Shown: positions 15,701 through 59,725 of the stretch, piece after piece
Layout: each line of letters begins with the position of its first letter
Position numbering within the stretch: position 1 is the first letter of the stretch
The notes under the pieces: generated by a model
What the model saw: only the letters and a program-made list of their open reading frames with translations
Told to the model about the DNA's origin: nothing
The model's database searches: none
Position numbers and translations under genes: made by a program
Origin: Clostridia bacterium
GTDB taxonomy: Bacteria; Bacillota; Clostridia; Oscillospirales; CAG-272
Length of the DNA: 64,000 nucleotides
Assembly (NCBI GenBank): GCA_017453245.1
Contig: JAFTKM010000008.1
Coordinates: 19,017 to 83,016, forward strand
Reading direction: 5' to 3'

Positions 15701-16315
15701 GAGCTTCTCAGCAGCTACGTATGGGATCAGTACGAGATGGATAGCGTTATCCGCGGAGCCTTCAGCGCTGACGAGACAACGGCTGCAAAGCAGGCGGAAT
15801 ACCTCGAAAATGTAAACAATAACTTTACAGAAGCGTGGAATTACTACCAGATGGACGATGTCAAGCGCGGCATCTTCCACAACCACGATAACAGAACCGA
15901 CAAGGATATGAAGGCTCTCGAGTATCTCGAGATCTACAACGCAGACGGCAAGGAAGCTCTTAAGGCTTACTGGGATTCTGAGTTCAGCTCTATCCTTCCC
16001 GGCGAGGACGATGACGTAACCGATATTTCCGAGTGGAGATATAACTACTTCTGGAATTATTATAAGATGGATGACGTTATCGCAGGTATCTATCACGGCA
16101 AGGTTGCAGACTATACCGACGAGATGCTCGCGTATGTCGAAAAAATGGAAAATGACGTCGCTAATAATCCCGAGCGTCAGGGATGCGTTGCGGTAACAAG
16201 AGAGCTTGCTGAGATTCTCGATACTCTCATCGCAAGAGAGGTATTTGAGGACGTACAGAACGGTTGGCTCAAGTTCTGCTTCTACTACGATATGCTCGGC
16301 ACGTATGCTGAGTAA
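12761..16315 (+). CDS. Large surface lipoprotein (1184 aa): prealbumin/CarboxypepD_reg-like Ig domain, TlpA/redoxin-like thioredoxin-fold domain (CSNC), then a long uncharacterised region with C-terminal W-x-YY-x-MDDV repeats
   Basis: Lipoprotein signal LILTLSCVLPLVSCGG. YTVKVVTVGGMPLEGVMVYI...DKDGIAKFKL. Redoxin motif VMLNFWYVGCSNCYYEFPYI, with CSNC at nt 13355-13366. Three repeats: VWDQYEMDSVIRGAF, AWNYYQMDDVKRGIF, FWNYYKMDDVIAGIY. Confidence 0.8.
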   Translation: MNFKKLISFLLCLILTLSCVLPLVSCGGKDNGGDDDDGKTPGGSVVGGGNGGTTENGETEYTVKVVTVGGMPLEGVMVYIHNGEAYSVCTAPQETDKDGIAKFKLKTSNDYSVQIDGAPNGYNVKEGLTKDDRYPLTAPDTLITLSSAPITSGGFKSSYDIGDVMYDFTLTDINGDTYKLSEMLKTKDMVMLNFWYVGCSNCYYEFPYINNVYKNYMDDIEILAINDYTTDTKQDVIDYPEYLGEELAMPLFKVGNTANDLTLSKFPSEGYPTTVIIDRYGVICMIEVGAVLGDSKWKNIFDHFVGDDYKQTLITDNSILNPQLEPTVKWDDDSAEEIANAFNSGDITVSYHPETNEKDAKYAWPFIVDTYNGETVVRPSNNGVDNSFAILYADVQLKPGQAIMFDWFASTQNNEMGTDVLYILVDGKDIYSISGISEDGYEICCTYVDPRPVTETNKDDVATYEVAFAYYKDTVESEGDDTVYLKNLRVVGVDEIPVETYIFRYAATDLNETGDGYNTYVTVHLGADGYYHVGSVDGPLLLANHLSYTQFDSEKTVSERVYANYSLMVNGVNKFQNWVTYGNAASNSQMYYYTPVTEELREMLMAYCEEHRREVGKSASENLWLQLCVYYDAYGVDEDGNPAEHLPDPIQGLTSFSAFEVEITNDNPTTQGDVVASAEVTYNRVIMPRGYLYKFVPTKSGVYRITSKSEQEVNGWIFTGNNDEWVKNEGDRTILTSDSVAERITDDLLIENEDGTMAFDRTNVSLVAYMEAGEAYYIDIAYYDVYAVGTFTFDVKWIGESFGHFIQASPGPITYIESVNGGMGQLIAGGIDVDFKTVDGVEYAYQVLERDENGNVTKWGEKIYADFYYPTTLFPSQSIEALLKANAFNYTITELDREALILLDGVRVDGKAALIDKWIKEETVADKDAAEAKWAELGLDDIVKDGLDGTYDGTYTDEALALADYVIAEGTYELKAEWGKELLSSYVWDQYEMDSVIRGAFSADETTAAKQAEYLENVNNNFTEAWNYYQMDDVKRGIFHNHDNRTDKDMKALEYLEIYNADGKEALKAYWDSEFSSILPGEDDDVTDISEWRYNYFWNYYKMDDVIAGIYHGKVADYTDEMLAYVEKMENDVANNPERQGCVAVTRELAEILDTLIAREVFEDVQNGWLKFCFYYDMLGTYAE

Positions 16316-24008: not shown

Positions 24009-24037
24009 TTGAATTTTTGTCAATGTTGTGTTAAAAT
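24009..24037 (+). promoter_or_regulatory. Candidate promoter of the giant protease gene
   Basis: TTGAAT (24009-24014), 17-nt spacer, TGtTAAAAT (-10 at 24032-24037). This implies the ORF-track start at 24009 is not used. Confidence 0.45.
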
Positions 24038-24104
24038 AGTTAAGCGCGTTTTTACGTACGCGTGTATACATATGATTAATAAAAGAAAGGCAAAACCGAA
24101 AAAA

Positions 24105-30100: not shown

Positions 30101-32384
30101 TTGCGAAAACCTTGACAACGTAATCTTCAACCCCATCGGTACAGAGGTCGGCGAGGGAGCATTCTCCTACTGCTCGACTCTTAACGCTACCGAGCACTTC
30201 AACAAGATTTACAGCATCGGCGATTACGCCTTTGCATACACCGACGTAAGAGAGGCTGACCTTGAGTGCGCGACTCTCGTCGGAGACTTCGCCTTCATCA
30301 AGGAGGAGATGACTCCCTTCGAGGTAACGCTCGGCAAGAATCTTGTGACTCTCGGTGACAACCCCTTCGCAAACTGTCAGATAGGTCCGTTCTACTCCAT
30401 CGTAGAGGAGACCTGGAACGGCGCGGTCGTTAAGACCGAATACGTATACACCTACGATATTAACGATCACGTTAAGATCATCAACGGCTCTATCTACTGC
30501 GTAGTGCCCGACGGACTTGAGCTCACCACCTACGTGGGACTCGACAAGGACGGCAAGAGCCTTGACAAGGATAACGTCAAGCTCGACGAGAGCACCGTGA
30601 GAATCACCGCTATGGCGTTTATGGGTGCGGATATAACGAGAGTTACCCTTCCTCACTCGCTCCGCTCTATCGGTCACAAGGCATTCTATCAGTGCGGAAA
30701 TCTCTCGCTCGTTGTATTCGAGAGCTATGAGGCTCCCGTGCTCGAGGAGGAGTTTGACCAGGCGCTTTACGACGCATTCCTCAATATCCCCTGCAAGGGT
30801 GAATACGACTTCACCTACTGGGAGGATCAGGACGGCGACGGCAAGCTCGACTCTCAGACTCCCGTTACCTACAAGGGCCTTGAGATCATTCCCTACTACA
30901 TGTGGAATATTTCCTCCACTAAGTACAACAACATCTTCTACGGCGCAAGCTTCGTTGACCATATCGGTTACGTAAACGATGCGAACCGTAACTACGCCAA
31001 CATGGGCAACCTCATTATGGTGGCTCCCTCCAACGGCGTATACTACGATACCTTCATTCTTGACCAGTACTTCAGCTCTATTATCTCGGGCGCGGTTGCG
31101 GCAGACGACGTAACTCTCGCGGCTATCGCGGCTATCAACGCTCTGCCCGACAGAGTAACGCTTGATGACGAGCCTCTCGTTATCGCGGCAAGAGCGGCGT
31201 ATAACAAGATCAGCAGCGCCGAGCAGCAGGCTCTCGTCACAGAACAGCTCCAGAAGCTCGTTACCGCAGAGAATCTTATCAAGGCGTACAGGAATACGGG
31301 AAGCGAGGAGCCTCCGGTAGTTGACGACGACCAGACCGTCACCAAGGATCCCACCAAGACCGCGCTTATCGTTCTTTCCGTGATCGAAGCGGTTGAGATC
31401 ATTGGCATTGCGGCCGCAGTTATCGTATGGTTCTATATCAAGCGCAGAAGAAAAATGCGCGAAAATCTCGCGCTCCGCGGCGGACTCACCACGGTGACTG
31501 TAAAGAAGCCCGTGGCTGAAGAGACCGTAAAGGAAGAAACCGCCGAGGAAATGGCAGAAAGACTCAAGGAGCACGAAAGACGCGCTGAAGAGGCTAACGC
31601 CAAGCACGAGAGAAACAGAAGGATAAAGAACATCGTTATCTACGTTCTTCTCTTTGCTATCTGTATTGCGGGTGTGGCGTTTGTAATGACGAAGTGCAGT
31701 AAGGATACCTCTCCTTACGCCGGCTACGGCGACGAGGGATACAGCGTCAGCATCAAGTATGACGCAAACGGCGGTATCTTCACCACCAACACCTCCGTGC
31801 TCGTGGATACTTACAGCTTAAACGATCTTCCCTCCTCCGAGGACGGAAGTAAGCTAATCACTCTCCTTGACCCGAACAGCCCCGCAAGAGGCAATCAGGC
31901 ATATCTGGCGGCCAAGGTCGGCTACCACCTCGCAGGCTGGTACACCGAAAGAACCGCAGTTACCGACGAGGCGGGAGAGGTTATCGGCTACACCTATTCG
32001 GGCAAATGGGACTTTGAGAATTCAAGGTACGCTATCAGCCCCGACGCAAATTATAACCCCGCAAGACCTATTCTCACCCTTTATGCGGCGTGGGTGCCCT
32101 CGTTCAGCTGTGAGTTCTATTCGGTTGATGAAAGCGGCGCGCTCACTCTTATTGACACTAAGGAAATAAATCCCGTGGAGGGCGCAAGAATCACCCTTCC
32201 CACGTACGACGAGGAGGCGGGAGCCTTTGAGATCGACGGAATACTCTACGATCTCTACTACACCGAATCCTGCACCGGCGAAAAAATCAGCGGCGAATCT
32301 GTATCCCATAGCGGCTTCTTCAATTCGGCAAACGCGACGGTTGAAAACCCCGTTATGAAGATATACTGCAAGCCCGTAGGCTAA
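24105..32384 (+). CDS. Giant cell-surface protein: signal peptide, subtilisin S8 peptidase with PA insert (lactocepin/C5a-peptidase-like), Ig-like domains, long BspA-type leucine-rich-repeat region, TM hairpin, C-terminal Listeria-Bacteroides (Flg_new) repeat domain
   Basis: Signal MKKKSFTRVSSRILMALLAVAMVFTFAASTLG. Catalytic motifs VAVLDTGLD (D codon 24753), NNHGTHVSG, SGTSMACP (S codon 25941). LRR units such as IGDYAFANNRSLKSVTFPSTLSSIGAYAF across ~28270-30700. TM1 at nt ~31363-31440 and TM2 at ~31633-31695. YDANGG...GYHLAGWYT...LYAAW at the C-terminus. The start could instead be 24072. Confidence 0.85.
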   Translation: MKKKSFTRVSSRILMALLAVAMVFTFAASTLGTTVAADGGVFKKNDSIYTDYKSYLDGSVVQALPATVDKNETISVIVKLDTPTLMDAYNKTDKAMSFGEYVMTEEAQKIKADIQAEKEEYLIALTRSGIPYEVGCDYANILAGFEVLYTAKNFENACKYLPTDATAIIGEVYKVAETQLVENKIDVYEETGIFDSSDFTINGEKYSGSGMVVAVLDTGLDYTHPAFDPARLNSNRLGLTKSEVESHVANTVAASRVPGLTADDVYINEKVPFAFDYADNDSDVYSLHNNHGTHVSGVIVGHDDTIIGVAPDAQLVSMKIFSDVQDSARASWILAALEDCVELGVDVINMSLGTACGFSRETDEEQMSGVYDDIRALGISLVVAASNSFNSAYGSEKNGNLGLTSNPDTSTVGSPSTYDGALSVASINGVKTPYILDSKGTIIYFVESSDSAGEEKNFFTELLGSELSETELEYVLIPGVGNPSDYDGIDVMGKIALVRRGSNTFEEKAKAAEAAGAKALIVYNNTSGDIRMNVGIVSIPVCSVSQDDGEMLAAAKNGTLKISKSQTSGPFMSDFSSWGPSPSLQIKPEITAHGGNILSAVTGHGYDRLSGTSMACPNMAGAIALMRQYVITNFESKIKNESGVIDYVEVNSIVNRLLMSTADIVNNKNGLPYAVRKQGAGLANLGDAITTGAYILTYDRLDGSVMDKSKIELGDDPNKTGVYTLKFTIDNFGKSALSYDISANVMTEGVSETPTYQGETVVSEEGYLLSGARVEITSTKGGAISGNTVTVEAGARCDVVITVTLGEDDKAYLDFSFENGMYIEGFVTLTAKDEGSTDLNVPYLAFYGNWYQAPLFDLDYFETNADELDDSLATLDKTLPDAYATRPIGGISGDYVSYLGSYYFLQNPKNKIISASRDYIALSNNDGTIRSLRFVWGGMLRNSERIVITITDDATGEVIFEKVETSIRKSYGDGGSYIYPANIEIEFDTADYNLKNNATYTVKLQGYLDYDDGTGENKTPDENLKSTFEFPLTVDFEAPSLTDCEFYTEYDKDAKKTRLYAKMAVYDNHYAMGMQIGYVGVGNYVDESTGEMVEGNMLYPFETYMTPIYSERNGTTYVTYELTDYIYDIKQNSYNKNTFAVSFYDYAINEATYEIELPDDFAELYLEESEITLNPNEVYTITANVYPESEWDELLEFSASGNAVRIVNNKIVAVKPGKSSVFIYDPKTNKEVTMTVTVRAPGDEGYKEVTKPVADVFKLTGYDTLNAFYFLSNDDRDIGETGDVVLFNGENYSLSFYPSESVKINYKLDAYFPDATTVEFISSNESIVTVDQSGTIVALDEGYTSITVRVLQDGKATYTTKTISIEVKDPYVRTGPTLNNYFGAGHMNSGNVEIPADMLFTQIGQYAFSNSTYIDKTEEQILEDPESKDATIITYIGNDDIKRVVIPEGVETIGAYAFANLTALEEVVLPSTLEAIEYGAFFNCISLKTVKGLEHVKLINQNAFANCNISNDLSLDSIHAIGDYAFANNRSLKSVTFPSTLSSIGAYAFMSNTSLENFDVSECGTVKYGPYVFMNCRSLETITMNTSVIPSGAFYNCVDLTTVNIGSTVSYIGEYAFTGTAVTEFTVADGNTAYKPSANKNYLLSPDGTTLLLVAPGVKGDFTLEGVTEIGIGAFAGNSDITSVNMPDVTVVNDYAFAECKSLTDVTLGSLAAVGKYSFFLTSITELPSLEGVDVIGDYAFSFTLITEVTIGDGKVIGEGAFCECTELKKVTIGNDVLIGKSAFLRGTTTDDPRNPGSYLNLGQKAVEDIESGFYRYDYLSKLTSLTIGKNADIGEAAFMGASYLTKVTLGEGAIIGKMAFYNCRALYEIDLSGAKRIGNMAFSGDNTYAFIDALGSDYAVRDNAYVLVYFNPIITSVDLSSCEVIEDQAFIHCKKLTTVKLGEKLTDIPYMAFANCDSLTTVNLENVVTLGYAAFGETDLVSANLYRAEKIGDYAFTYCENLDNVIFNPIGTEVGEGAFSYCSTLNATEHFNKIYSIGDYAFAYTDVREADLECATLVGDFAFIKEEMTPFEVTLGKNLVTLGDNPFANCQIGPFYSIVEETWNGAVVKTEYVYTYDINDHVKIINGSIYCVVPDGLELTTYVGLDKDGKSLDKDNVKLDESTVRITAMAFMGADITRVTLPHSLRSIGHKAFYQCGNLSLVVFESYEAPVLEEEFDQALYDAFLNIPCKGEYDFTYWEDQDGDGKLDSQTPVTYKGLEIIPYYMWNISSTKYNNIFYGASFVDHIGYVNDANRNYANMGNLIMVAPSNGVYYDTFILDQYFSSIISGAVAADDVTLAAIAAINALPDRVTLDDEPLVIAARAAYNKISSAEQQALVTEQLQKLVTAENLIKAYRNTGSEEPPVVDDDQTVTKDPTKTALIVLSVIEAVEIIGIAAAVIVWFYIKRRRKMRENLALRGGLTTVTVKKPVAEETVKEETAEEMAERLKEHERRAEEANAKHERNRRIKNIVIYVLLFAICIAGVAFVMTKCSKDTSPYAGYGDEGYSVSIKYDANGGIFTTNTSVLVDTYSLNDLPSSEDGSKLITLLDPNSPARGNQAYLAAKVGYHLAGWYTERTAVTDEAGEVIGYTYSGKWDFENSRYAISPDANYNPARPILTLYAAWVPSFSCEFYSVDESGALTLIDTKEINPVEGARITLPTYDEEAGAFEIDGILYDLYYTESCTGEKISGESVSHSGFFNSANATVENPVMKIYCKPVG

Positions 32385-32397
32385 GAAAGGAGAAAGC

Positions 32398-35337
32398 ATG
32401 AAAAAAAGAATAATATCTATGCTCTTGTGCGTGGTAATGTGCTTCTCCGCATCGGTGACGCTCACGGGCTGCGCGGCCGGTAACTCCGGTACGGACGCTT
32501 TCGTTATAATGACGGAAAGCCTCGACGGACTCTTCAATCCGTTCTTCTCCACGTCGGCAAACGACGGTACTATCGTATCAATGACTCAGATCGGTATGCT
32601 CTCCTCTAAGCTTAACGAGGCGGGAGAGGTTGACGTGGCCTTCGGCGAAAACGAGGCCACGGTAACCCTCGACTTCGAGCAGAGCGAGCTTAACGAGAAT
32701 AACGAAACCGTCTACACCTTCGTTCTTAAGAACGGCATCAAGTATTCGGACGGACACCCTCTTACTATGGAGGACGTGCTCTTCAATCTCTACGTTTACC
32801 TCGACCCCGTATATACCGGCTCGGCTACCATCTACTCGACTGATATCAAGGGTCTGGCGGCGTACAGAAACCAGTCTCTCGGAGCTGACAGCGACAACAA
32901 CAGCGAGGACACCATCAACCAGACTGCGGCGAGCAGAGCCTCGCAGAGAGTGATGACACTCGTACAGCTCTATTGGGACACCAACAAGAAGATCAACGGC
33001 TCGAGCGCATCGACCAACAACGTAACCTACCAGCAGATGGTCGAGGCTATCAAGGCCTACAACATCCAGGCAGACCTCGGTTATCTCTCGGCGGTGGCAA
33101 CCTCCGACAAGCACTCGGAGATAACCTATCAGAATCTCCTTAACGACTATGAGCTCGCTCTTACGTACTTCCGCGAGGAGCTCGAGAGCGACTACAAGAA
33201 CGCGAAGGACGCCTACACCGAGTCTCCCTACAAGGAGCACGAGGAGTTCAAGGACGAGGTCTTCTGCTTCATGTTCACCGAGGGCTTCATTACTCCCGAG
33301 TATGAGAAGATCCCCGGCACAAACAAGGACGATAAGTCCAAAATTAAAGGTTTTGTTTACAATTACAACAATGAAACGATAACAACGAAGGAAGCGGCTA
33401 TCGAGAAGGTATACAACGATACCGTAACTCAGAGCCTCGACGCGATCCTCCTTTACTGGGCGACCGCATCCAAGCTCAACACCGAATTCACCGCTAAGGC
33501 GAAGGAGGTCATCCTCCGTGAGAGCGCGATCGGAGGTCTTATCGTTCCCAACATTGAGGGTATCGTATCCCTCGGTCACACCACCGGCATTGAGAGTGTC
33601 ACCGTCAACGGCACCGACTACAAGGTTGCTCACGACCACGACGAGAACGGCGCTCCCGTGAACGAGGATGAGTACGACGTGCTCAGAATCACCATCAACG
33701 GCGTCGACCCCAAGGCAATATGGAACTTTGCCTTCTCGGTTGCTCCCCAGCACTATTACGGCAAGGGCAGCGCGGTCGGCGTGGATATTGCAAACAACCA
33801 GTTCGGCGTGGAGTTCTCCTCCTTTGACTACATGAGAGACGTGCTCCAGACTCCCGACAACAACAAGCTGCCTATGGGCGCGGGCGCGTACAAGGTTACC
33901 GACCGTTCCGGCAGCGATAACCCCGACAGAAACGATTTCTTCAGCAACAACATCGTTTACTTCAAGGCGAACAACTACTTCGAGACCGTTGGCGAGGGCA
34001 TCAGCAATCCCAAGATCGAGAAGGTACGTTATCAGGTAATCAGCGCATCCAACGCTCTTGCGGCGCTCGAGGAAGGAAGCGTACACTACATCACACCTCA
34101 GTATTCCAAGGATAACTACACCAAGATCGCGGAGCTTGAGAAGAAGAACTTCGAGAGCCTCTTAACCGATCAGCTCGGTTACGGTTACATCGGTATCAAC
34201 GCATCCAAGGTAACCGACATCAATATCCGTAAGGCGATCATGGCGGCGATGAACACTACCCTCGCTCTTGACTACTACGCGAGCGGTACTGCATCGCAGA
34301 TCTACTGGCCGATGTCCAAGGTCTCCTGGGCTTATCCCAAGGGTTCGGGTGACAACATCACCAACGACAAGGGCTATCCTCAGCCCGGCGGAACCTTCAA
34401 CGAGGCTGATGCCGAGGCGGCAATACAGAGCTATATGCAGGCGGCGGGCGTGAGCGCAGGCCATCCGAGTCTCTCGGTCACCTTCACCATCGCGGGCTCC
34501 AACCTCAACGATCACCCCACCTACAAGACCTTCAGAGACGCGGCAGACCTGCTCAACAGACTCGGCTGGGACGTAACCGTCGAGCCCGATACTCAGGCTC
34601 TCACCAAGCTCGCGACAGGTTCTCTCGAGGTATGGGCGGCGGCTTGGGGCTCGACCATCGACCCCGACCTTTATCAGGTATATCACAAGAACTCTACCGC
34701 GACCTCCACTCTCGCCTGGGGCTACCCCCACATAAAGGCGGCGGGCAGCGAGGAGGAGAAAAACATTCTCAACGACCTCTCCGATAAGATCGAGGCGGCA
34801 CGTGAGACAACCGACAGAGGTACCCGTTCCGCTCTCTACAAGGAGGCTATGGGTCTTATCCTCGACCTCGCGATCGAGCTTCCCGTATACCAGCGTTCCA
34901 CCGTATACGTATACAATACCGACGTTATCAATCCCGACTCCGTACCCGACGTTGTCAACCCCTACTCCTCTCCCCTTGACAGAATATGGGAGCTTGAGTT
35001 CAACGAGGGCGCGTTTGCCGGTAAGAGCACGGTAGACGTAGGCCTTATCTTCGCTATTATCGCTTCCGTTATGGCGATTGCGGCAGTTGTGCTTACTATT
35101 GTTTACATAACAAAGAAGAAAAACGAAAAATCACCTATGCTTGCTTACGCTGTTACTCTCTCCGATATAGAAGCAGGAAACGTCAGACTCCCCGGTCAGC
35201 CTAAGCAAAAAAAGCAAAAGGCGGCCTCGCCTGCCATATGCGCAGATGACGCGCAGGCAGAGGAGACGGCGCCCGAGCAAGCAGAACAAACCAATGAAAA
35301 TGAAAGTGACACTGAGAAAGGAGAAGAAGAATGTTAA
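32398..35337 (+). CDS. ABC transporter substrate-binding lipoprotein, family 5 (Opp/Dpp-type), enlarged to 979 aa with a C-terminal TM helix and acidic tail
   Basis: Lipobox SASVTLTGCAAG and an SBP_bac_5-like core (YSDGHPLTMEDVLFN...). C-terminal VGLIFAIIASVMAIAAVVLTIVYITKKK (nt ~35040-35125), then an E/Q-rich tail. Confidence 0.8.
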   Translation: MKKRIISMLLCVVMCFSASVTLTGCAAGNSGTDAFVIMTESLDGLFNPFFSTSANDGTIVSMTQIGMLSSKLNEAGEVDVAFGENEATVTLDFEQSELNENNETVYTFVLKNGIKYSDGHPLTMEDVLFNLYVYLDPVYTGSATIYSTDIKGLAAYRNQSLGADSDNNSEDTINQTAASRASQRVMTLVQLYWDTNKKINGSSASTNNVTYQQMVEAIKAYNIQADLGYLSAVATSDKHSEITYQNLLNDYELALTYFREELESDYKNAKDAYTESPYKEHEEFKDEVFCFMFTEGFITPEYEKIPGTNKDDKSKIKGFVYNYNNETITTKEAAIEKVYNDTVTQSLDAILLYWATASKLNTEFTAKAKEVILRESAIGGLIVPNIEGIVSLGHTTGIESVTVNGTDYKVAHDHDENGAPVNEDEYDVLRITINGVDPKAIWNFAFSVAPQHYYGKGSAVGVDIANNQFGVEFSSFDYMRDVLQTPDNNKLPMGAGAYKVTDRSGSDNPDRNDFFSNNIVYFKANNYFETVGEGISNPKIEKVRYQVISASNALAALEEGSVHYITPQYSKDNYTKIAELEKKNFESLLTDQLGYGYIGINASKVTDINIRKAIMAAMNTTLALDYYASGTASQIYWPMSKVSWAYPKGSGDNITNDKGYPQPGGTFNEADAEAAIQSYMQAAGVSAGHPSLSVTFTIAGSNLNDHPTYKTFRDAADLLNRLGWDVTVEPDTQALTKLATGSLEVWAAAWGSTIDPDLYQVYHKNSTATSTLAWGYPHIKAAGSEEEKNILNDLSDKIEAARETTDRGTRSALYKEAMGLILDLAIELPVYQRSTVYVYNTDVINPDSVPDVVNPYSSPLDRIWELEFNEGAFAGKSTVDVGLIFAIIASVMAIAAVVLTIVYITKKKNEKSPMLAYAVTLSDIEAGNVRLPGQPKQKKQKAASPAICADDAQAEETAPEQAEQTNENESDTEKGEEEC

Positions 35338-47800: not shown

Positions 47801-48313
47801 ATGAAAAGGAACGTAAGAAGGGTCACCTCATCGACCCGTTATCTGACACGCGGAGCGCTTATTGCGGCTCTGTACGTCGGCCTCACCTACGTATCGACGG
47901 TTTTCGGCCTCTCAAGCGGAGCTATACAGTTCCGTATATCCGAGGCGCTGATCATTCTGCCGATATTTATGCCTGAGGCTATCCCCGGACTGTTTATTGG
48001 CTGTATTCTCTCGAATATAGTCAGCGGATGCGTGCTGTGGGACATTGTTTTTGGCAGTATAGCCACGCTTATCGGAGCTGTCGGCGCCTATACGCTAAGG
48101 GATCTGCCGATTAAATTCAAATGGGCGGCAACGCTGCCGAATCTTATCTCCAATATGGTTATCGTGCCGTTTGTGCTGATGTACGCATACGGAGTGGAGG
48201 GCGGCTTCTGGCTTTTATCACTGTCGGTCGGCATCGGCGAGGCGGTATGCGGAGTTATCGGAGGCTCGGCGCTCTATTATTCGGTCAAGGACCTGAGAAT
48301 TTTTAAAATATGA
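47801..48313 (+). CDS. queT: Queuosine-precursor transporter QueT (ECF S-component-like)
   Basis: MKRNVRRVTSSTRYLTRGALIAALYVGLTYV...QFRISEALIILP. Start at 47801 after AAAGGAG. The upstream part of the ORF in the track is leader sequence. Confidence 0.8.
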   Translation: MKRNVRRVTSSTRYLTRGALIAALYVGLTYVSTVFGLSSGAIQFRISEALIILPIFMPEAIPGLFIGCILSNIVSGCVLWDIVFGSIATLIGAVGAYTLRDLPIKFKWAATLPNLISNMVIVPFVLMYAYGVEGGFWLLSLSVGIGEAVCGVIGGSALYYSVKDLRIFKI

Positions 48314-50190: not shown

Positions 50191-51600
50191 TTAGTTAGCC
50201 AAATACTTATGGATAGACTCCGCGGCAACCTTGCCCGCTCCCATAGCCGAGATAACGGTTGCGGCGCCTGTTACAGCGTCTCCGCCTGCGTACACGCCCT
50301 TGCGGCTGGTGAGTGCATCCTCGGAGATTATGATACCACCCCACCTGTTGACCTCAAGGCCCTCTGTGGTATCCTTGATAAGAGGGTTCGGCGAGGTGCC
50401 GATGGAAATGATGACTGTGTCAACGTCGATTTCGTGCTCCGAGCCTTTGACCTCGACAGGTCTGCGGCGGCCTCTTTCGTCGGGTTCGCCAAGCTCCATA
50501 CGGATGCACTTCATGCCCGTGACAAATCCGTTTCTCGGGTCTCTCGAGTCGTCGGTGTTATTGTAACCGAGTATCTCGGTGGGGTTGCAAAGGAGCTTGA
50601 ATTCAATGCCCTCCTCCTCTGCGTGCTCGACCTCCTCGCGTCTTGCGGGGAGCTCCTCCATAGAGCGGCGGTAGACGATATATACCTTCTCCGCGCCGAG
50701 TCTGAGAGCAGTTCTCGCAGCGTCCATAGCAACGTTTCCTCCGCCTACGACAGCGACCTTACCGCCCTTCATAATGGGGGTATCGCTACCCTCTCTGTAA
50801 GCCTTCATAAGATTGGCTCTCGTGAGGAATTCGTTAGCGGAATATACGCCCTTAAGGCTCTCACCGGGGATACCCATAAAGTTCGGAAGTCCTGCGCCCG
50901 AGCCGATAAATACAGCCTCATAGCCCATTTCGAAGAGCTCGTCTATCGTAAGCGTCTTGCCTATAATTACGTTGGTGAGGATCTCAACTCCCATAGCCTT
51001 AAGGCTCTCAACCTCCTTAGCCACGATGGACTTAGGAAGTCGGAATTCGGGTATGCCGTAGACGAGTACACCGCCCGCTGTGTGGAGCGCCTCAAATACG
51101 GTTACCGAGTAGCCGAGTCTTGCGAGGTCGCCCGCGCAGGTAAGACCGGAGGGACCTGAGCCCACTACCGCAACCTTGCGGCCGTTTTTGGGCGCGGTTA
51201 TGGGTGCTTCGGTACTGTGAGAGTTGTGCCAATCGGCAACAAAGCGCTCAAGTCTGCCGATACCGACGGGCTCGCCCTTGATACCTCTGACACACTTTGA
51301 CTCGCACTGAGTTTCCTGCGGACATACTCTGCCGCAGACTGCGGGGAGCGAGGAGCTCTCGCTGATTATCTTGTACGCGCCCTCAAAATCAAGTTCGCGT
51401 ATCTTCTCTATAAACTCGGGGATATGGATCTTTACGGGGCAACCGCCGACGCAGGGCATTGTCTTACAGCCGAGGCATCTTGCCGCCTCGTCGAGCGCCT
51501 GCTCCTCGGTGTAGCCGAGGGCTACCTCGGAAAATACCTTGCCGCGCTCGATGGGATCAAGTGTGGGCATAGGATTCTTTTTCGGTGACATATTAGCCAT
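50191..51600 (-). CDS. nfnB: NADH-dependent reduced ferredoxin:NADP oxidoreductase large subunit (NfnB; GltD/SudA-like)
   Basis: CLGCKTMPCVGGCPV (Fe-S), VAVVGSGPSGLTCAGDLAR (FAD) and VAVVGGGNVAMDAART (NADPH). I prefer the start MANMSPKK at 51600, which overlaps the upstream stop. Confidence 0.8.
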   Translation of the reverse strand: MANMSPKKNPMPTLDPIERGKVFSEVALGYTEEQALDEAARCLGCKTMPCVGGCPVKIHIPEFIEKIRELDFEGAYKIISESSSLPAVCGRVCPQETQCESKCVRGIKGEPVGIGRLERFVADWHNSHSTEAPITAPKNGRKVAVVGSGPSGLTCAGDLARLGYSVTVFEALHTAGGVLVYGIPEFRLPKSIVAKEVESLKAMGVEILTNVIIGKTLTIDELFEMGYEAVFIGSGAGLPNFMGIPGESLKGVYSANEFLTRANLMKAYREGSDTPIMKGGKVAVVGGGNVAMDAARTALRLGAEKVYIVYRRSMEELPARREEVEHAEEEGIEFKLLCNPTEILGYNNTDDSRDPRNGFVTGMKCIRMELGEPDERGRRRPVEVKGSEHEIDVDTVIISIGTSPNPLIKDTTEGLEVNRWGGIIISEDALTSRKGVYAGGDAVTGAATVISAMGAGKVAAESIHKYLAN

Positions 51601-52456
51601 TGTTCTCTGCCCCCTTCTTAAAGAGATTGCAAGCCGACTCGTAAGCGTGGCGCTCGAAGTCGCGATACATATTTCCGCGCGAGATAGCCTCGTCAAAGTC
51701 TACCTCATAGCCGTTAAAGTCAGGACCGTCAACGCAAGCAAACCTGGTAACGCGCTTGCCGTCAATATTGAGGGTGAGTCGACAGCCTCCGCACATTCCC
51801 GTGCCGTCGATCATTATGGGGTTCATCGATACGTCGCAGGGGATACCCGTAGGCCTTGTTGCCTCAGTAACAAACTTCATCATAACGAGAGGTCCGATGG
51901 TGATGACCTTATCAAAGCTTCTGCCCGATGCGAACATTTCACCAAGAGGCAGACAGACGTTACCCTCTCTTCCATACGAGCCGTCATCGGTCATAACAAT
52001 AAGCTCGTCGGACGCCGCGCGGAACTCATCCTCGAGGATAACAAGGTCCTTCAAGCGGAAGCCGATAATAGAGGTGACAGAGCATCCGAGTCTCTTTAAT
52101 TTCTCGGCAATAGGAAGCGCGATAGCGCAGCCAACGCCGCCGCCAACAATACAAACCTTCTTCAGCCCATCGGTATGAGTCGGGACTCCGAGAGGACCTG
52201 CAAAGTCGGAGAGCGAGTCGCCCTCGTTCATCTCGGCAAGCTTTTTTGTGGTCGCGCCAACCGTCTGGAATATGATTCTTACCGTTCCCGCATCTCGGTC
52301 ATAGCCCGCAACTGTGAGGGGGATTCTCTCGCCCTCGGAGTCGGTGCGAAGAATGATAAACTGTCCTGGCTCAGCCTTTCTCGCAACGAGGGGAGCCGCT
52401 ATATCCATAAGAGTCACGTAAGGATTCAGGACTCTTTTATAAACTATTTCGTACAT
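51593..52456 (-). CDS. nfnA: NfnA (PyrK/SudB-like FAD/[2Fe-2S] subunit)
   Basis: 287 aa. FIILRTDSEGERIPLTV, VGGGVGCAIALP, GTGMCGGCR. Confidence 0.8.
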   Translation of the reverse strand: MYEIVYKRVLNPYVTLMDIAAPLVARKAEPGQFIILRTDSEGERIPLTVAGYDRDAGTVRIIFQTVGATTKKLAEMNEGDSLSDFAGPLGVPTHTDGLKKVCIVGGGVGCAIALPIAEKLKRLGCSVTSIIGFRLKDLVILEDEFRAASDELIVMTDDGSYGREGNVCLPLGEMFASGRSFDKVITIGPLVMMKFVTEATRPTGIPCDVSMNPIMIDGTGMCGGCRLTLNIDGKRVTRFACVDGPDFNGYEVDFDEAISRGNMYRDFERHAYESACNLFKKGAENNG

Positions 52457-52636: not shown

Positions 52637-52776
52637 TGGGTTTATGTATACTTTGATTAGCATTATGCTAAATTAAGATGATTTTGCGGCACGTGATAAC
52701 AACCGCGTTATGAGATTCATCAAAAGGAAATCTTATATTTGCTCCTCTCTGAAATCAAAACTTGTTTGTTAATTGT

Positions 52777-53124
52777 TCTATAGCACACCGGGGCGAAAAA
52801 GTAAAGGACGGTTTGATTACTCGGGGCCGCCCTGCTTTTAACCTTCCCCAGCGAAGCGAGTTGGGGAAGGGGGACCACCTTTGGTGGTGGATGAGGTTGA
52901 ATTGATGCTCACGCATCATAAATTGCACGTTGTGCATGAATTGGCTACACCATGAATTGACGGCAAAGTCGTCACTATGGTGAAGTTTTTGCCTACGGCA
53001 AAAGTGAAGTTGTGCGAAGCACAGTGAAGTTTGAGGCGTTGCCTCAAGTGAAGTTGATTTTGCTCGGTGCAAAATCAGTTATTCGGTAAGAGACCTCATG
53101 GCTTTGGCAATACAGTCGGGGTAA
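52777..53124 (-). repeat. Cassette junction repeat copy 5 (cotJC-tail mimic 53079-53117, word-hairpin array 52842-53075, promoter block 52777-52835); followed by no ORF
   Basis: The mimic encodes DCIAKAMRSLTE-stop on the minus strand. The array is parsed in the findings. TTTACT, 17 nt, TATAGA. Confidence 0.8.
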
Positions 53125-53571: not shown

Positions 53572-53915
53572 AGTTGTTCCCTCCATAAAAAACTTATAGA
53601 ATGATGCCACATTTATTATACCACACTCACACGAAAAAGTAAAGGACGATTTGATTTCTCAAACCGCCCTATATGATGAATTGATGCTCACGCATCATGA
53701 ATTGCACGATGCGCATGAATTGGCTACGCCATGAATTGACGGCAGAGCCGTCACTATGGTGAAGTTTTTGCCTATGGCAAAAGTGAAGTTGTGCGAAGCA
53801 CAGTGAAGTTTGAGGCGTTGCCTCAAGTGAAGTTGCTTTTGCTTCTTGCAAAATCAGTTATTCGGTAAGAGACCTCGTAGCTTCGGTAATACAGTCAACA
53901 TAAAGCATTATTCAA
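53572..53915 (-). repeat. Cassette junction repeat copy 4 (mimic 53858-53896, array 53676-53855, promoter 53615-53643)
   Basis: The mimic encodes DCITEATRSLTE-stop. Promoter is TTTACT, 17 nt, TGgTATAAT. Confidence 0.85.
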
Positions 53916-54773
53916 TCACTTTAATTTTTCTTTACAATAACGCAAAAGCTCTTTGGTTAAGCAACAGAACGATTCACCTTTCACCTGTACCTTTCCATTG
54001 GAATCTATGAACTCACAACAAAATTCAATATAGTAGCACAACTTTATACTATTATCCAACAGGACTCTAATTGGTGAGCCAATTTGGACAAGTTCTTTTT
54101 TTCTCCAAAGATTTCGGTCAATGAAAATGCCTTTATCATCATAGTCAGAATTACTCGCAATTTGCTCTAATGGCTCAAATGAGAAGTATATTCCAAGATA
54201 TGTTGAATTTTCATTAGATAAAAACATTGTGAGTTCTACAAAATCAACTTGCTTAAAGCATCTTTTCCCAAATTCATTCCAATACCAAAGATATATTAAC
54301 AGTTGCTTTTGGGAAAGAAATTCAGTCAATCCAGATAAATCTTCTTTTTCCCAAAATCCACCGATCGTATATGTTTTGTATTTTATTTTTGGTTGTTCGC
54401 AATAAGTAATTGCCTGTTCAAACAACTGTGACGAGGGCGAATAATCAATATCAATTCTGCCAAATGTTTTGGTCTTGCCACATTCCGTGCATTGTGAGAC
54501 AAGCTCAACGGAAATAAAATCATCTGTTTCTTTTCTTCGCAGGTAATCAAAACGAACCTTAAAGAAATCATTTTTACAGGAACACTTTTGCTTGCTTGGA
54601 TGCTTTTCTTGAATTAAATCATACCAATATTCTTTACTATCAAGAATAAAATAGGATTTATCAGAACGAGATATAAGAATACCTGCATTTTCATCACGAA
54701 TATATCTGATTTGAAACTCATCTTCTCCTATAGATGACACAATTTCTTTTTGTATTTTTCTTTCGTCAAGCAT
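53916..54773 (-). CDS. Cassette C cargo: hypothetical protein (285 aa) with a CxC...CxxC putative zinc-ribbon
   Basis: KQKCSCKNDFF...SQCTECGKTK. AAAGGAA RBS. A hand count of one 60-nt line (54001-54060) gives 17 G+C. Confidence 0.7.
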   Translation of the reverse strand: MLDERKIQKEIVSSIGEDEFQIRYIRDENAGILISRSDKSYFILDSKEYWYDLIQEKHPSKQKCSCKNDFFKVRFDYLRRKETDDFISVELVSQCTECGKTKTFGRIDIDYSPSSQLFEQAITYCEQPKIKYKTYTIGGFWEKEDLSGLTEFLSQKQLLIYLWYWNEFGKRCFKQVDFVELTMFLSNENSTYLGIYFSFEPLEQIASNSDYDDKGIFIDRNLWRKKELVQIGSPIRVLLDNSIKLCYYIEFCCEFIDSNGKVQVKGESFCCLTKELLRYCKEKLK

Positions 54774-55018
54774 ATGGCAATTCCTTTCTTTTGTTATACA
54801 ATGTCAAACGATGAATTGAGCCGTTGGCTCATGAATTGCACAAAGTGCATGAATTGGCTACGCCATGAATTGACGGCTATGCCGTCGTTGTGGACACCTC
54901 ATCCACCACTTCGCGGTCGACCCCCTTCTCCCACTGGAGAAGGCTGAGGTTATTCGGTCAAAGACCTCATAGCTTCGGCAATACAGTCAGAGTGAAGTAT
55001 TCTTTTTAAATACGGTTC
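54774..55018 (-). repeat. Cassette junction repeat copy 3 (mimic 54950-54988, short array 54808-54949); lacks the conserved promoter block
   Basis: The mimic encodes DCIAEAMRSLTE-stop. About 55 nt (CCTTCTCCCACTGGAGAAGG hairpin through CATAGCTTCG) is near-identical to the true cotJC end at 57021-57075. Confidence 0.85.
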
Positions 55019-55522
55019 TCATTTGCCACAACAGCTATTACAAGCACTATCGGGTTCTTTACAATGATACCAACAATAATCCTGGCTAATTCGAGACGCA
55101 TATTTTGAAGCCTGAATTTCAAGAGAACGATTGTTTTTTTCCTTATCATCATAAAAATACCATTGAAAATAATGTGTCAGTTCATGACTTAGCGAATCGT
55201 ATATTTGGCATAAGCTTTGTTGCGTAGGAATGTATATCTGCGGATATGCTCGTTCGCCACTTTCATGATTTGAGAAAAACATCCCATAGCTATATCCCCC
55301 TTTGTGCTTACGAAATTTTTCTTGATTGCAAAAATAAACATTACATCTTATCGGGAAGTAAAATTCTTTTCTTAAATAGCGTACAAAATTACATATACAT
55401 TTCTTGGTTTTAGGGTCAATGTCTGATGCAAAATGAAGAGAAAGATTTGATTTAGGTGCTGAATCTGCATAAAATGCCAAGTTTTCCTCTGTTTTTGTTA
55501 CCCACAAAAAGTTATTTGCCAT
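55019..55522 (-). CDS. Cassette B cargo: hypothetical HExxH protein (167 aa), possible small zinc metallopeptidase, Cys-rich C-terminus
   Basis: LSHELTHYFQW and C-terminal CWYHCKEPDSACNSCCGK. ATG at 55522 has GGAGGT 8 nt upstream. Confidence 0.7.
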   Translation of the reverse strand: MANNFLWVTKTEENLAFYADSAPKSNLSLHFASDIDPKTKKCICNFVRYLRKEFYFPIRCNVYFCNQEKFRKHKGGYSYGMFFSNHESGERAYPQIYIPTQQSLCQIYDSLSHELTHYFQWYFYDDKEKNNRSLEIQASKYASRISQDYCWYHCKEPDSACNSCCGK

Positions 55523-55895
55523 TTTTAAGCACCTCCATTTCAAATCGACTCTATGATAATTATACCACACACCTACCAAAAAGTAAAGGACGATTTGATC
55601 TCTAAACCGCCCTATTGAATGAATTGAGCCGTTGGCTCATGAATTGCACGTTGTGCATGAATTGGCTACGCCATGAATTGACGGCTATGCCGGCGTTGTG
55701 GACACCTCACCCACCGTCTGCGACGTCCCCCCTCCCCAAAGGGGAGTGTAAATGCCACCTTCGCAAAGCGAAGATTTCATCGCTTTAGCGATTTCATCCG
55801 ACCTCGTCGGATTTATTTCGTCTTGGACGGATTTAATTGCGAAGCCTACTCCGTAAGGCTTCGCATGGCTTCGCCAATGCAGTCGACATGAAGTA
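55523..55895 (-). repeat. Cassette junction repeat copy 2 (recoded mimic 55846-55884, array 55616-55845 with ATTTCAT-type words, promoter 55559-55587)
   Basis: The mimic encodes VDCIGEAMRSLTE-stop with different codons for RSLTE-stop. Promoter is TTTACT, 17 nt, TGgTATAAT. Confidence 0.85.
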
Positions 55896-56669
55896 CTATT
55901 TATTGTTTTCCACCAACTTTTTTATGTAATCGCTTCTGCTTCCGTCCCAATGACACAATTCGCATTTGCCGTCCTTAAATTGATGCTTACACTTTTCATA
56001 ACCATAAAGAATATGTGCACACTCGGGACAAAGCGACATCATTTGCGATTTAGTTTTAATAAACTTGCTTCCGCATTCATCACATTCGTGACAGATTGAG
56101 CCAAGAGTTTCTTTCATTTTTTCTCTATCATAATCTAAAAAATAACCTTCAAGTTTTGGATAAAACTCAATATATTTATTCTCAGAAAAGAAAACAATAT
56201 CACAACCCCTATCGTCATAGACTGAAAATATAAATTGATCATCAAATGAAACAAAACTGACCAAAGGTGAATATTGATTATCTATTTGTTTTTTTATTAT
56301 TCTTTCAAAAACTGCGAAATCAACATCAAATGAAATATATCTTTTTACTGTTTCAACATCTTCGTCTATTAGATCTATACTATGTAGCACATCCATATCA
56401 AGATTAATTACTTCGTCAATGGTTATTCCAAAATTGCCAACTTCGCATGCTTTGCCGTCAATAAAATACTCTAAATAAAATGCCGCATCTATTTTTTTGT
56501 TTTCAAATAAAATGTTAGCAATTTTCATTGCTCTCTCTAAAGCGTTATCAAAATATTCTTTGCCTTGACCAATTCCCAACTCGCATCTTAAAGCTAATTT
56601 ATTACTGTAAAACCAGGGCTGCGAGTAATCGAAAGTGGGGTCAAGTATTTTTTCACGCATATTGTTCAT
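55896..56669 (-). CDS. Cassette A cargo: hypothetical protein (257 aa), DUF3885-like N-terminal region (tentative) plus C-terminal double zinc-ribbon
   Basis: SVYDDRGCDIVFF, and CHECDECGSKF...CPECAHILYGYEKCKHQFKDGKCELCHW. AT-rich. Confidence 0.7.
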   Translation of the reverse strand: MNNMREKILDPTFDYSQPWFYSNKLALRCELGIGQGKEYFDNALERAMKIANILFENKKIDAAFYLEYFIDGKACEVGNFGITIDEVINLDMDVLHSIDLIDEDVETVKRYISFDVDFAVFERIIKKQIDNQYSPLVSFVSFDDQFIFSVYDDRGCDIVFFSENKYIEFYPKLEGYFLDYDREKMKETLGSICHECDECGSKFIKTKSQMMSLCPECAHILYGYEKCKHQFKDGKCELCHWDGSRSDYIKKLVENNK

Positions 56670-57045
56670 GTTACTTGCTCTCTTTTAGAATATAATATTG
56701 TTTTTTACATTATACCACAACCCACATGAAAAAACAAGGACGATTTGACTAATCAAACCGCTAATCAAACCGCCCTTGTGGATGAATTGAGCCGTTGGCT
56801 CATGAATTGCACAGAGTGCATGAATTGGCTACGCCATGAATTGACGGCTGTGCCGTCGTTGTGGTGAAGTTTGCGTTTCACGCAAGTGAAGTTGTGCGAA
56901 GCACAGTGAAGTTGATTGTAGCCTTCTCCTGAGGGAGAAGGGGGACCACTTGTGGTGGATGAGGAGTTGGCTATAATTACAACAAAAGTGACACCTCATC
57001 CGCCTCACTTCGTTCAGCACCTTCTCCCACTGGAGAAGGCTTAGG
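56670..57045 (-). repeat. Cassette junction repeat copy 1 (abuts the true cotJC stop; array 56781-57045, promoter 56709-56737)
   Basis: Same ATGAATT and GTGAAGTT word-hairpin grammar. Promoter is TTGTTT, 17 nt, TGgTATAAT. Carries a duplicated GGTTTGATTAG unit. Confidence 0.8.
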
Positions 57046-57594
57046 CTATTCGGTCAAAGACCTCATAGCTTCGCCAAAGCGCTGGTAGTGGACAATCTCG
57101 CGCTGGCGGAGGAATTTGATAGCGTCGTTTACGTCGGGGTCGTCGCTAAGGCGGAGGATATTATCGTAGGTGACTCTCGCCTTCTGCTCTGCCGCGAGGT
57201 CCTCGTTGAGGTCGGAGAGCGCGTCTCCCTTTGAGGATATTGCAAACGCGTTGAAGGGCTCGCCCGATGCCGCCGAGGGGAAGACACCGTTGCCGTGGCC
57301 GATGTAATACTTATCAAGGCCGCCGGCAGTTATCTGCTCGGGGGTGAGGTTGCGTGTGAGCTGATAGATGATACTGCCCACCATCTCGGCATGCCCGAGC
57401 TCCTCATTGCCGATGTCCGTTAAGGTAGCGATAATCTTGCCCTTAGGCATAGTGAATCTCTGATTCAGGTATCTTGTCGCGGCGCCGAGCTCACCGTCGG
57501 GACCTCCGAGGGCGTCTATAATAAGACTTGCTAAGCGCGCGTTGGGGTTCTTAATCTTTACGGGGTACTGAAGCTTTTTCTCATATATCCACAT
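57046..57594 (-). CDS. cotJC: Spore coat protein CotJC (manganese-catalase-family)
   Basis: MWIYEKKLQYPVKIKNPNARLA...GELGAATRYLNQRF...EELGHAEM...REIVHYQRFGEAMRSLTE. Close to my recollection of B. subtilis CotJC. Confidence 0.9.
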   Translation of the reverse strand: MWIYEKKLQYPVKIKNPNARLASLIIDALGGPDGELGAATRYLNQRFTMPKGKIIATLTDIGNEELGHAEMVGSIIYQLTRNLTPEQITAGGLDKYYIGHGNGVFPSAASGEPFNAFAISSKGDALSDLNEDLAAEQKARVTYDNILRLSDDPDVNDAIKFLRQREIVHYQRFGEAMRSLTE

Positions 57595-59517: not shown

Positions 59518-59725
59518 GTGTTCTCCGTCAAGAAGAACACACTATAACTAAGTTTGCCCTTTCGGGCAAGTGCAGTTGTCTTCGACAGTGAAGTTCACTT
59601 CGTGAGTGAAGTTTTGCCTGTCGGCGAAGTGATGGGCAAACTTAACTACACTGCGAGCATTTGCGAGCAACTTCACTGTGCTTAGCACAACTTCACTTTC
59701 GCTTTTGCGAAAACTTCACCAGCAG
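59518..59725. repeat. Word-hairpin array with AGTGAAGTT (x2) followed by its reverse complement AACTTCACT/C (x3)
   Basis: AGTGAAGTT at 59587-59595 and 59605-59613. AACTTCACT at 59669-59677 and 59689-59697, and AACTTCACC at 59712-59720. Each pair is separated by a 9-15-nt mini-hairpin. Confidence 0.8.

Follow-up and report, generated by a model that had tools for sequence, protein, structure and literature searches.

The 64,000-nucleotide stretch of Clostridia bacterium DNA analyzed here (contig JAFTKM010000008.1, positions 19,017 to 83,016; hereafter the window) carries the spore-coat gene cotJC, followed by an array of four small gene cassettes that are separated by short copies of the cotJC 3' end. 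One of these copies, a 39-base segment at 55846-55884, encodes the C-terminal peptide of CotJC with different codons. We consider it highly probable that this segment is an attR-type junction, or scar, of a mobile-element large serine recombinase (LSR) which targets the F-G-E-A codons (TTYGGCGAAGC) of cotJC, and that it carries a spare in-frame end from another cotJC allele. This reading is based on the anatomy of the junction, the linkage between LSR genes and the same junction in other genomes, a cotJC::attL fusion in a related locus, tails that match the C-terminus of their hosts, and a natural cotJC allele with the same codon set. The features on which it depends are as follows (I1 to I4 denote the four junctions in order of distance from cotJC).

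57046-57594, minus strand: cotJC, 182 aa, spore-coat gene of the Mn-catalase family (Pfam Mn_catalase PF05067, 5.9e-52, 176.9 bits against a cut-off of 27)
57046-57093, minus strand: putative attB-type site in the cotJC 3' end, with B arm ..GTCCACTACCAGCGCTTTG, core GCGAAG (57074..57069) and B' tail C TATG AGG TCT TTG ACC GAA TAG
55875-55895, minus strand: element-side P arm of junction I1, TACTTCATGTCGACTGCATTG, containing the 'DCI' codons and matching the consensus TACTTCAYNNTGACTGTATTG
55869-55874, minus strand: predicted crossover core GCGAAG of junction I1, the center of the P/P' dyad and the homology breakpoint of shared cassettes
55846-55868, minus strand: target-side B' tail of junction I1, C ATG CGA AGC CTT ACG GAG TAG (MRSLTE-stop), matching the cotJC of locus L001 at 18/18 bases; same codon set in L097, L089 and L083
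54950-54999, minus strand: junction I2, P arm + CCGAAG + AGG TCT TTG ACC GAA TAA
53858-53907, minus strand: junction I3, degenerate P arm TGCTTTATGTTGACTGTATTA + ACG AGG TCT CTT ACC GAA TAA
53079-53128, minus strand: junction I4, most degenerate P arm + AGG TCT CTT ACC GAA TAA

On the minus strand, 55884..55846 reads GAC TGC ATT GGC GAA GCC ATG CGA AGC CTT ACG GAG TAG and is translated as DCIGEAMRSLTE-stop, just as a first-pass annotation of the window had it; the three further RSLTE-stop copies listed there were also found as described, at 54988..54950, 53896..53858 and 53117..53079 (DCIAEAMRSLTE-stop, DCITEATRSLTE-stop and DCIAKAMRSLTE-stop, respectively). The window cotJC ends with GGC GAA GCT ATG AGG TCT TTG ACC GAA TAG. 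All five R-S-L-T-E codons differ between this end and the recoded tail (9/15 bases), so that the claim of a change in every codon including the stop holds for the amino acids and fails for the stop, which is TAG in both; TAA is present only in the remaining three copies. RSLTE was kept in 27 of the 9.85e7 sequences at a Hamming distance of 9 from the cotJC tail over 15 positions (2.7e-7), and the probability that a random 18-mer encodes RSLTE-stop is 7.5e-8. The tail also lies in a hairpin, which ties only one pair of bases in the coding stretch, namely base 1 of the Leu codon and base 3 of the stop. Since the hairpin-conditioned probability in our enumeration stayed at 1.3e-7 (2304 / 1.7e10), the hairpin could not account for the peptide. 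Translation of the recoded tail in its present place was rejected: the open reading frame (ORF) of cassette 1 ends at 55896 in another frame, and the tail's own frame contains a TAA seven codons upstream of GAC.

The 'DCI' codons upstream of the tail had been noticed as a feature shared by all copies. They are indeed part of a common junction sequence, but not of a conserved peptide; they belong to an element-side DNA half-site of the LSR, TACTTCAynnTGACTGTATTG. The consensus TACTTCAYNNTGACTGTATTG is the sequence that follows the LSR stop codon in L093 and L100-L107, and the P arm of junction I1 is an inverted repeat of the P' arm at L105:4777. P arms in the window decay away from cotJC, with 2, 0, 3 and at least 4 mismatches for I1, I2, I3 and I4, respectively. 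The core is common to all junctions and also marks the breakpoint of the cotJC::attL fusions in L105 and L110. Comparison of the window ORF285 with its counterpart in L089 revealed that homology ends at ...GACTGTATTNNCGAAGC (...GAAGC) and that the tails beyond differ, and the same pattern, with loss of homology at the core, was observed between ORF186 and L092. Because homology ends at the core and the tails differ, each tail belongs to the unit downstream of the junction and not to the preceding ORF. The crossover had been placed within GAAGC(T/C)ATG, which is nearly right: the center of the attP dyad, GCGAAG, lies a few bases 5' and overlaps that interval, and homology is lost right after GAAGC. 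On sequence grounds, the central crossover dinucleotide would be GA, at the center of the dyad, the four copies in the window can be assigned to attR-type junctions (P arm, core and B' arm), and the cotJC end to an attB-type site.

The LSR family linked to this junction consists of proteins of ∼505 aa with the domains Resolvase, Recombinase and Zn_ribbon_recom, and includes more than 120 clusters at identities of at least 53%. The genomic contexts of seven members were compared. Contig L093 starts with an LSR ORF whose stop is 3 nt before the junction, and the LSR stop is found 1-8 nt before the P arm in L093 and L100-L108. The gene order in L099, L100, L102 and L103 is LSR, junction, 0-4 cassettes, and then DHODB_Fe-S and gltD-like genes as in the window; the window and these arrays occupy the same chromosomal slot. 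The order in L105 and L106 is DUF4416, cotJA, cotJB, cotJC, a 6.7-kb element that ends in the LSR, the junction and six cassettes. In both L105 and L106, cotJC is fused at ...TTTGGCGAAG to CAATACAATCAGGGTGAAGCA (attL), which gives the L105 gene the new end GEAIQSG-stop. The P' arm at this site, the only place where it was found in sense orientation, agrees with the inverted P arm at 16/22 positions around GCGAAG, including a perfect CAATACA.TCA / TGA.TGTATTG, and the attP reconstructed from both arms is TACTTCATGTTGACTGTATTG-GCGAAG-CAATACAATCAGGGTGAAGCA (TACTTCATGTTGACTGTATTGGCGAAGCAATACAATCAGGGTGAAGCA). The attR of L108 retains the remainder of a long-form cotJC (LRIAQDRTDCKNFYAYNPSFD-stop) together with its native terminator, which indicates that long-form cotJC was split at the same core. 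In addition, a distant member of the family (P0064; 58% identity, 600 sequences) lies 11 nt from a cotJC that is cut at GGCGAAGC and ends GEALQSR-stop. A domain-typical LSR stands beside an att site in L093 and L099-L108, though not within the window. Of the hybrid sites, attL lies in the cotJC of L105 and L110 and attR follows the LSR; attB-type ends are found in L001, L002 and L003.

Several genes accompany these recombinases. A trio directly upstream of the LSR (L105:8230-9978; also in L103, L104, L106, L107 and L112) is composed of an ORF of ∼306-311 aa, a ∼140-aa protein with a weak Resolvase match and a 60-aa ORF; the L112 counterpart of the first matches Phage_integrase. Accessory or directionality factors are a possible role for this trio. 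Other LSR-adjacent cargo includes an OLD-family nuclease/AAA_21 gene, restriction-modification genes, a BlaI/BlaR1-like pair and an RHS-repeat lipoprotein (L099:2647-4362, L100:1-8184, L101:1-9406, L108:2648-5493 and L103:13660-14559), which suggests that some elements at the cotJC site carry defence or conflict genes. No close phage source of the LSR was found: the best match in the phage collection had 32% identity, and viral contigs scanned with the P-arm motif gave 0 matches, hence no sign of cassettes on catalogued phages.

To characterize natural cotJC ends, we used a scan of one genome per species, which yielded 80 cotJC loci. A tblastn search of the LSR against the window and these loci returned L093 itself only. 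Three array-free loci among them are listed below.

L001: CotJC identity 96% (closest species found), no array, end GGT GAA GCT ATG CGA AGC CTT ACG GAG TAG
L002: CotJC identity 92%, no array, end TTG CGC TCA TTA ACC GAG TAA
L003: CotJC identity 87%, no array, end CTC AGG TCG CTT ACC GAC TAA

L001, a metagenome-assembled genome (MAG) of an uncultured Ruminococcus sp. without cassettes, has a translated cotJC with the very codon set of the recoded tail (18/18 bases after ATG). In L002 and L003, ordinary terminators follow the cotJC stop. Considering that these three genes encode RSLTE or RSLTD with varied codons, RSLTE/D is a genuine CotJC C-terminus under selection in this clade; cotJC genes and junctions together use at least six codon sets for it. 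Most other CotJC proteins are ∼25 residues longer (GEALR..Q[DE]..KNFYAFNPSFDK). The existence of the L001 allele supports the previous suggestion that the segment was once a translated gene end, probably of another cotJC allele or host.

The tails at junctions match their hosts in other genomes as well. CotJC of L010 (71% identity) ends with GEAMNILRDKKF-stop, and the cassette junctions of the same locus read DCIGEAMNILRDKNF-stop, DCIGEAMEILKDKKF-stop (...EILKDKKF-stop), DCIGEAMNILLNK-stop (...NILLNK-stop) and DCIAEAMNILRDKKI-stop (...NILRDKKI-stop). One cassette each, with the same junction motif, is present in L004 and L008. A metagenome scan with the cassette-side motif identified eight true junctions. 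The tail CGA AGC CTT ACG GAG TAG with its hairpin arm occurs in L097; L089 has the same codon set with a TAA stop, in one array with an NILRDKKF tail; L083 has an ACA variant; and the tails of L099 and L093 are CGT AGC CTT ACA GAG TAA and CGT TCC TTA ACG GAG TAA, respectively. Moreover, the junction tail of L103 is the native cotJC tail of L004, with the first 14 downstream bases included. The idea that cassettes travel together with a cotJC tail is therefore supported and can be generalized, given the host-type tails of L010 and the L004 tail in L103.

It should be noted that a number of points weigh against the junction reading. The comparison data come only from MAGs or metagenome contigs. 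Neither an LSR gene (tblastn) nor a P' arm is present in the 64-kb window, so LSR action on the window array would have to be deduced from other genomes. Canonical LSRs recombine attP with attB, or attL with attR when a directionality factor is present. The window array seems to hold attR-type sites and one attB-type site, and movement of a single cassette would need non-canonical reactions, such as attR with attB, or an indirect route. The B' arms are highly variable, which is unusual for a specific half-site, and parts of a unit are not stably linked: the 5' tail, hairpins and promoter of ORF285 and ORF186 differ between two contexts. The codon difference alone is weak evidence of a swap, as the bodies of the window and L001 cotJC genes have 80% nucleotide identity and differ in 48% of codons; the stronger argument is that the junction agrees at 18/18 bases with L001 and with unrelated arrays. 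Finally, L001 is not a naive site, because its 3' flank carries cassette-type hairpin modules. An element may have deposited the L001 tail, which would then not be ancestral, so 'natural allele' here means a currently translated cotJC end.

Four other explanations have to be weighed against these data. An accidental peptide match, or one produced secondarily by selection on the hairpin, has a negligible probability in our opinion: the tail does sit in a strong hairpin within a region rich in hairpin modules, but the chance is ∼1e-7 with or without the hairpin constraint that had been named as a possible refutation, the identical sequence is a translated cotJC end in L001, and other tails retain their peptide with different hairpin arms. 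It is also quite unlikely that the tail is the former cotJC end of the window lineage itself, displaced when cassette 1 (56669..55896) inserted, and not imported. The position of the junction right behind the first cassette, where an insertion at the core displaces the resident tail, would agree with such an origin, as would the presence of this codon set in L001, the closest relative found (protein identity of 96%). However, the most distal tail (I4) is of the AGG TCT type and adjoins a flank orthologous to that of L001 (52978..52803, 82% identical to the L001 cotJC 3' flank), which makes it the better candidate; the AGG TCT tail at I4 is probably the original cotJC end of the window lineage. 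Furthermore, the CGA AGC tail with a Gut-1-like array recurs in unrelated arrays, including L089 where it is mixed with an NILRDKKF tail, and the 18/18 identity of the tail contrasts with a 20% base difference between the window and L001 cotJC genes.

On the other hand, cassettes might have been shuffled mainly by homologous recombination between repeated modules, with the LSR bringing in the first element only and the tail arising by gene conversion. Modules of 40-300 bp that are 82-95% identical between units, different modules 5' of the same ORF in different contexts, and the lack of an LSR in the window all fit this possibility, and such recombination could shuffle cassettes equally well, which is a further point against our reading. 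It fails to explain why the ORF285 homology breakpoint falls exactly at the core, or why P arms with no coding role are conserved across hosts whose CotJC proteins are only 71% identical; we argue that this conservation reflects continuing selection by the recombinase. As the main process it is unlikely, whereas a contribution of homologous recombination between modules to cassette shuffling is probable. An integron-like tyrosine-recombinase system, whose hairpins would be the recombination substrates and whose junctions would act as folded, attC-like single-strand sites, appears very improbable. An array of single-gene cassettes that all point the same way, spaced by structured repeats, is reminiscent of integrons, and the 311-aa ORF upstream of the LSR matches Phage_integrase in L112. 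In contrast, cotJC has no neighboring tyrosine recombinase in the window, L004, L008 or L010; what consistently lies next to the junction is a serine recombinase gene. In addition, promoters are part of the cassettes themselves, the conserved junction sequence is a double-strand dyad half-site and not a hairpin, and hairpin modules are found elsewhere in the genome (59555-59720).

If the segment is an attR-type junction, a mechanism for the recoded tail may be proposed. Each integration or excision would swap the DNA at the core, and the sequence 3' of any junction could become the translated cotJC end. Since any 3' tail could take this place, tails would be kept in frame, short and of the host C-terminal type, while their codons drift or come from other hosts. 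Gain or loss of a cassette need not break cotJC when a spare tail is at hand. In this model, the CGA AGC tail most likely came into the array together with the next cassette (ORF 55522..55019) and formed the cotJC end for as long as that cassette stood first. Arrays without an LSR might arise in three steps: an LSR element excises with a distal attR and carries cassettes off, integrates into another cotJC, and then leaves through its own proximal attR, so that the cassettes remain and cotJC regains an attB-type end. This route for cassette mobilization, and the order of events in it, is our inference from the arrangement of sites.

The closest analogue of the proposed system appears to be the staphylococcal cassette chromosome (SCC/SCCmec) with its Ccr recombinases at rlmH. 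In staphylococci, the tandem elements at the rlmH (orfX) 3' end are bordered by att repeats. Both there and here, an LSR integrates into the last codons of a conserved gene, and the inserted DNA supplies a replacement end. Recombinase-less SCC elements accumulate beside recombinase-bearing ones and are mobilized in tandem (PMC11470126). The present system differs in its target (cotJC instead of rlmH), in its hosts (gut or rumen Clostridia), in its units (∼0.8-1.1 kb with one gene, terminator and promoter, whereas SCC islands are 20-60 kb) and in its recombinase, which is not a Ccr (79-107 bits to NCBIfam CcrA, CcrB and CcrC against cut-offs of 700-900). Serine integrases of phages and integrative and conjugative elements (phiC31, Bxb1, A118, TP901-1 and SPbeta SprA) share the Resolvase, Recombinase and Zn-ribbon architecture, an attP with a ∼21-bp inverted-repeat dyad around a short core, and attL/attR hybrids, and the catalytic domain of TP901-1 and SprA/YokA is homologous to that of this LSR; however, the LSR is at most 32% identical to any in the collection. 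To our knowledge, chains of attR-type sites with interchangeable B' arms have not been described for such integrases.

Integrons resemble the arrays in being gene-capture systems, in which co-oriented single-gene cassettes occupy a fixed chromosomal position and are shared between species, but IntI tyrosine recombinase, attI, attC and a common Pc promoter are all absent from the cotJC neighborhood in the window, L004, L008 and L010. Here, a terminator and a TTTACT-17-TATAAT promoter come with the cassettes, and the site of recombination is within coding sequence. Tandem accretion at gene 3' ends, with duplicated att sites that regenerate the gene end, is also known for cis-mobilizable elements, tycheposon-like satellites and tRNA-gene islands; those depend on tyrosine recombinases and have larger units, whereas peptide mimicry with synonymous recoding is visible here. 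Our literature search on cotJC cassettes, cotJC serine recombinases, manganese catalase attB sites and integron-like Clostridia arrays found no description of this system. One paper places phage phi027 of C. difficile next to a CotJC homolog (PMC11222575).

The recoded tail indicates that a recombination site can be under protein-level selection: as the site also serves as an exchangeable gene end, five residues and a stop were preserved through at least six codon sets. The landing pad of an abundant LSR family, which comprises more than 120 protein clusters (600 members in one of them), would be cotJC, and LSR-less arrays of small accessory genes would be exchanged between species whose CotJC proteins are only ∼70% identical. 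A broader possibility, to which we give slightly less than even weight, is that gut and rumen Clostridia carry an integron-like gene-capture platform built on the LSR, with a site at the cotJC end, promoter-bearing single-gene cassettes as attR chains, host-matched spare C-termini that regenerate cotJC, and Gut-1 as a structured 3' module whose first hairpin lies on the coding tail. If the mechanism is true, it would be a serine-recombinase counterpart to integrons and SCC islands, provide a genomic context for the Gut-1 RNA motif and offer naturally orthogonal attB tails for the LSR, which might be useful for genome engineering.

Structured elements follow the recoded tail immediately, and the 8-bp hairpin noted in the first-pass annotation proved real, with a stem that extends to 10 bp in RNAfold.

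55838-55865, minus strand: stop-spanning hairpin (RNAfold), 5' arm in the coding tail and 3' arm after the stop
55769-55839, minus strand: Gut-1-like array of four small hairpins with xAAAT spacers (RF01706, 30.7 bits, E = 0.004, gathering score 50)
55619-55715, minus strand: array of four hairpins with AATTCAT spacers (repeat family D1), present in all five units
55559-55613, minus strand: intrinsic terminator AGGGCGGTTT..AAATCGTCCT + T-run (55613..55587), overlapping the TTTACT-17-TGgTATAAT promoter of the next cassette (55587..55559)

In the first of these, GCGAAGCC (55864..55857) pairs with GGCTTCGC (55846..55839), and the hairpin has a folding energy of -17.8 kcal/mol (z = -4.5), which 0/200 shuffles could match. 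Stop-spanning hairpins with other arms occur in four further loci and are weak or absent in L001, L083 and L099.

L093: GCGTTCCTT / AAGGAACGC, z -3.35
L084 (NILLGK-stop): GAACATTTTAC / GTAAAATGTTC, z -3.4
L010 cassette 3: GAATATTTTAC / GTAAAATATTC, z -6.9
L008: GAGAATTTT / AAAATTCTC, z -2.55

The hairpin may have come from selection for a structured cotJC 3' end or from a templated origin of its 3' arm. Gut-1-like four-hairpin arrays with (A/G)TGAAAT spacers stand directly after cotJC-type tails in L084:39-110, L097:856-927, L089:2041-2112, L083:832-906, L093:1555-1626 and L008:11190-11261. The L084 array scores 51.5 bits to RF01706, above gathering, and the array in the five other loci 42-46 bits; the window copy is below the threshold. 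Gut-1 is an RNA motif with no assigned function, and the match directly 3' of cotJC-type tails gives it a defined genomic setting. The D1 hairpin array is also located downstream of cotJC in the empty site L001. Outside the cassette array, 59555-59720 contains the same GTGAAGTT/AACTTCAC-separated hairpin modules in both orientations between cupin and heparinase-like genes, where they behave like genome-wide modules of the repetitive extragenic palindrome type. A fixed-spacing search for GTGAAGTT repeats found nothing, because the spacers vary in length. A tandem TD-1 RNA motif (RF03155) was observed within the cassette array of L085, at 777-894 and 932-1051 (66.6 and 65.1 bits, above gathering).

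With regard to the remaining features of the locus, CotJB is encoded directly upstream of the window cotJC (Pfam 2.8e-29, 101.6 bits), and cotJA, upstream of cotJB, is annotated at the same locus in L109. The four cassettes are of low GC content (35-39% vs ∼51%) and lie between cotJC and the DHODB_Fe-S/gltD-like gene pair. In the sense of cotJC, each unit is ordered as tail (..GAAGCNATG + RSLTE-stop), small-hairpin arrays, intrinsic terminator (AGGGCGGTTTGA..TCAAATCGTCCT + T-run), an overlapping promoter (TTTACT-17-TATAAT), ribosome-binding site, one ORF and TACTTCAynnTGACTGTATTG.

55896-56669, minus strand: cassette 1 ORF, 257 aa, DUF3885 (Pfam 2.2e-16) with a C-terminal Zn-ribbon
55019-55522, minus strand: cassette 2 ORF, 167 aa, HExxH motif, no family match, 83% nucleotide identity to L092:175-815
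53916-54773, minus strand: cassette 3 ORF (ORF285), 285 aa, no family match, 82.5% nucleotide identity over 910 nt to L089
53125-53571, minus strand: cassette 4 ORF, 148 aa, predicted lipoprotein-like N-terminus
52780-53078, minus strand: terminal (fifth) unit without an ORF, with hairpin arrays, terminator and promoter-like sequence, then the conserved DHODB_Fe-S gene at 52456..51593

Terminator-promoter modules equivalent to that at 55559-55613 are found at 53670..53615 and 56779..56706. The ORF285 unit (54774-54830) has no such module, only TTGACA..TATAAC with wrong spacing before the ORF, and ORF285 may depend on read-through from the upstream cassette. In the terminal unit, a promoter-like TTTACT-17-TATAGA and an RBS-like (ribosome-binding-site-like) GAGAGGAG at 52700-52840 are followed by no ORF; this part may represent either what is left of a lost cassette or the cotJC 3' flank in its original form. 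The Zn-ribbon end of cassette 1 is common to cassettes in L010 and L106, and the L092 homolog of cassette 2 sits behind a different tail. At L092:100-170, a cotJC-like B arm, ..TTACAGCGTTTTGATGAAGCTATG AAC ATA CTG CGA GAT AAG AAA TTC TAA, encodes QRFDEAMNILRDKKF-stop with no cotJC body upstream and is followed by this homolog, whose distal junction enters a sequence that resembles a terminator (GCGAGGGTATC..GGTATCCTCGC). The B arm may mark a decayed site or a secondary one. An exact lookup of the CotJC protein returned only contigs with the identical four-cassette array.

Most cassette proteins of the window and 33 from other loci belong to no family in Pfam or NCBIfam. Scattered matches were to DUF3885, DUF2310, DUF2691, SF0329 and RHS, with weak ones to Imm32 and Imm33, which is only a hint of a polyimmunity role that we do not claim. 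Elsewhere in the window, TTATTCGGTCAAGGACCT at 48277-48294 agrees at 17/18 bases with the reverse-complemented cotJC tail (minus-strand RSLTE-stop). It was rejected as a related site, as it lies within the conserved C-terminus of a QueT transporter (..LYYSVKDLRIFKI-stop); the match is probably coincidental, though such a nucleotide match is unlikely by chance (∼1e-4). Other very large ORFs are present at 12761-16315, 19706-23665 and 24009-35337 (1184, 1319, 2791 and 979 aa).

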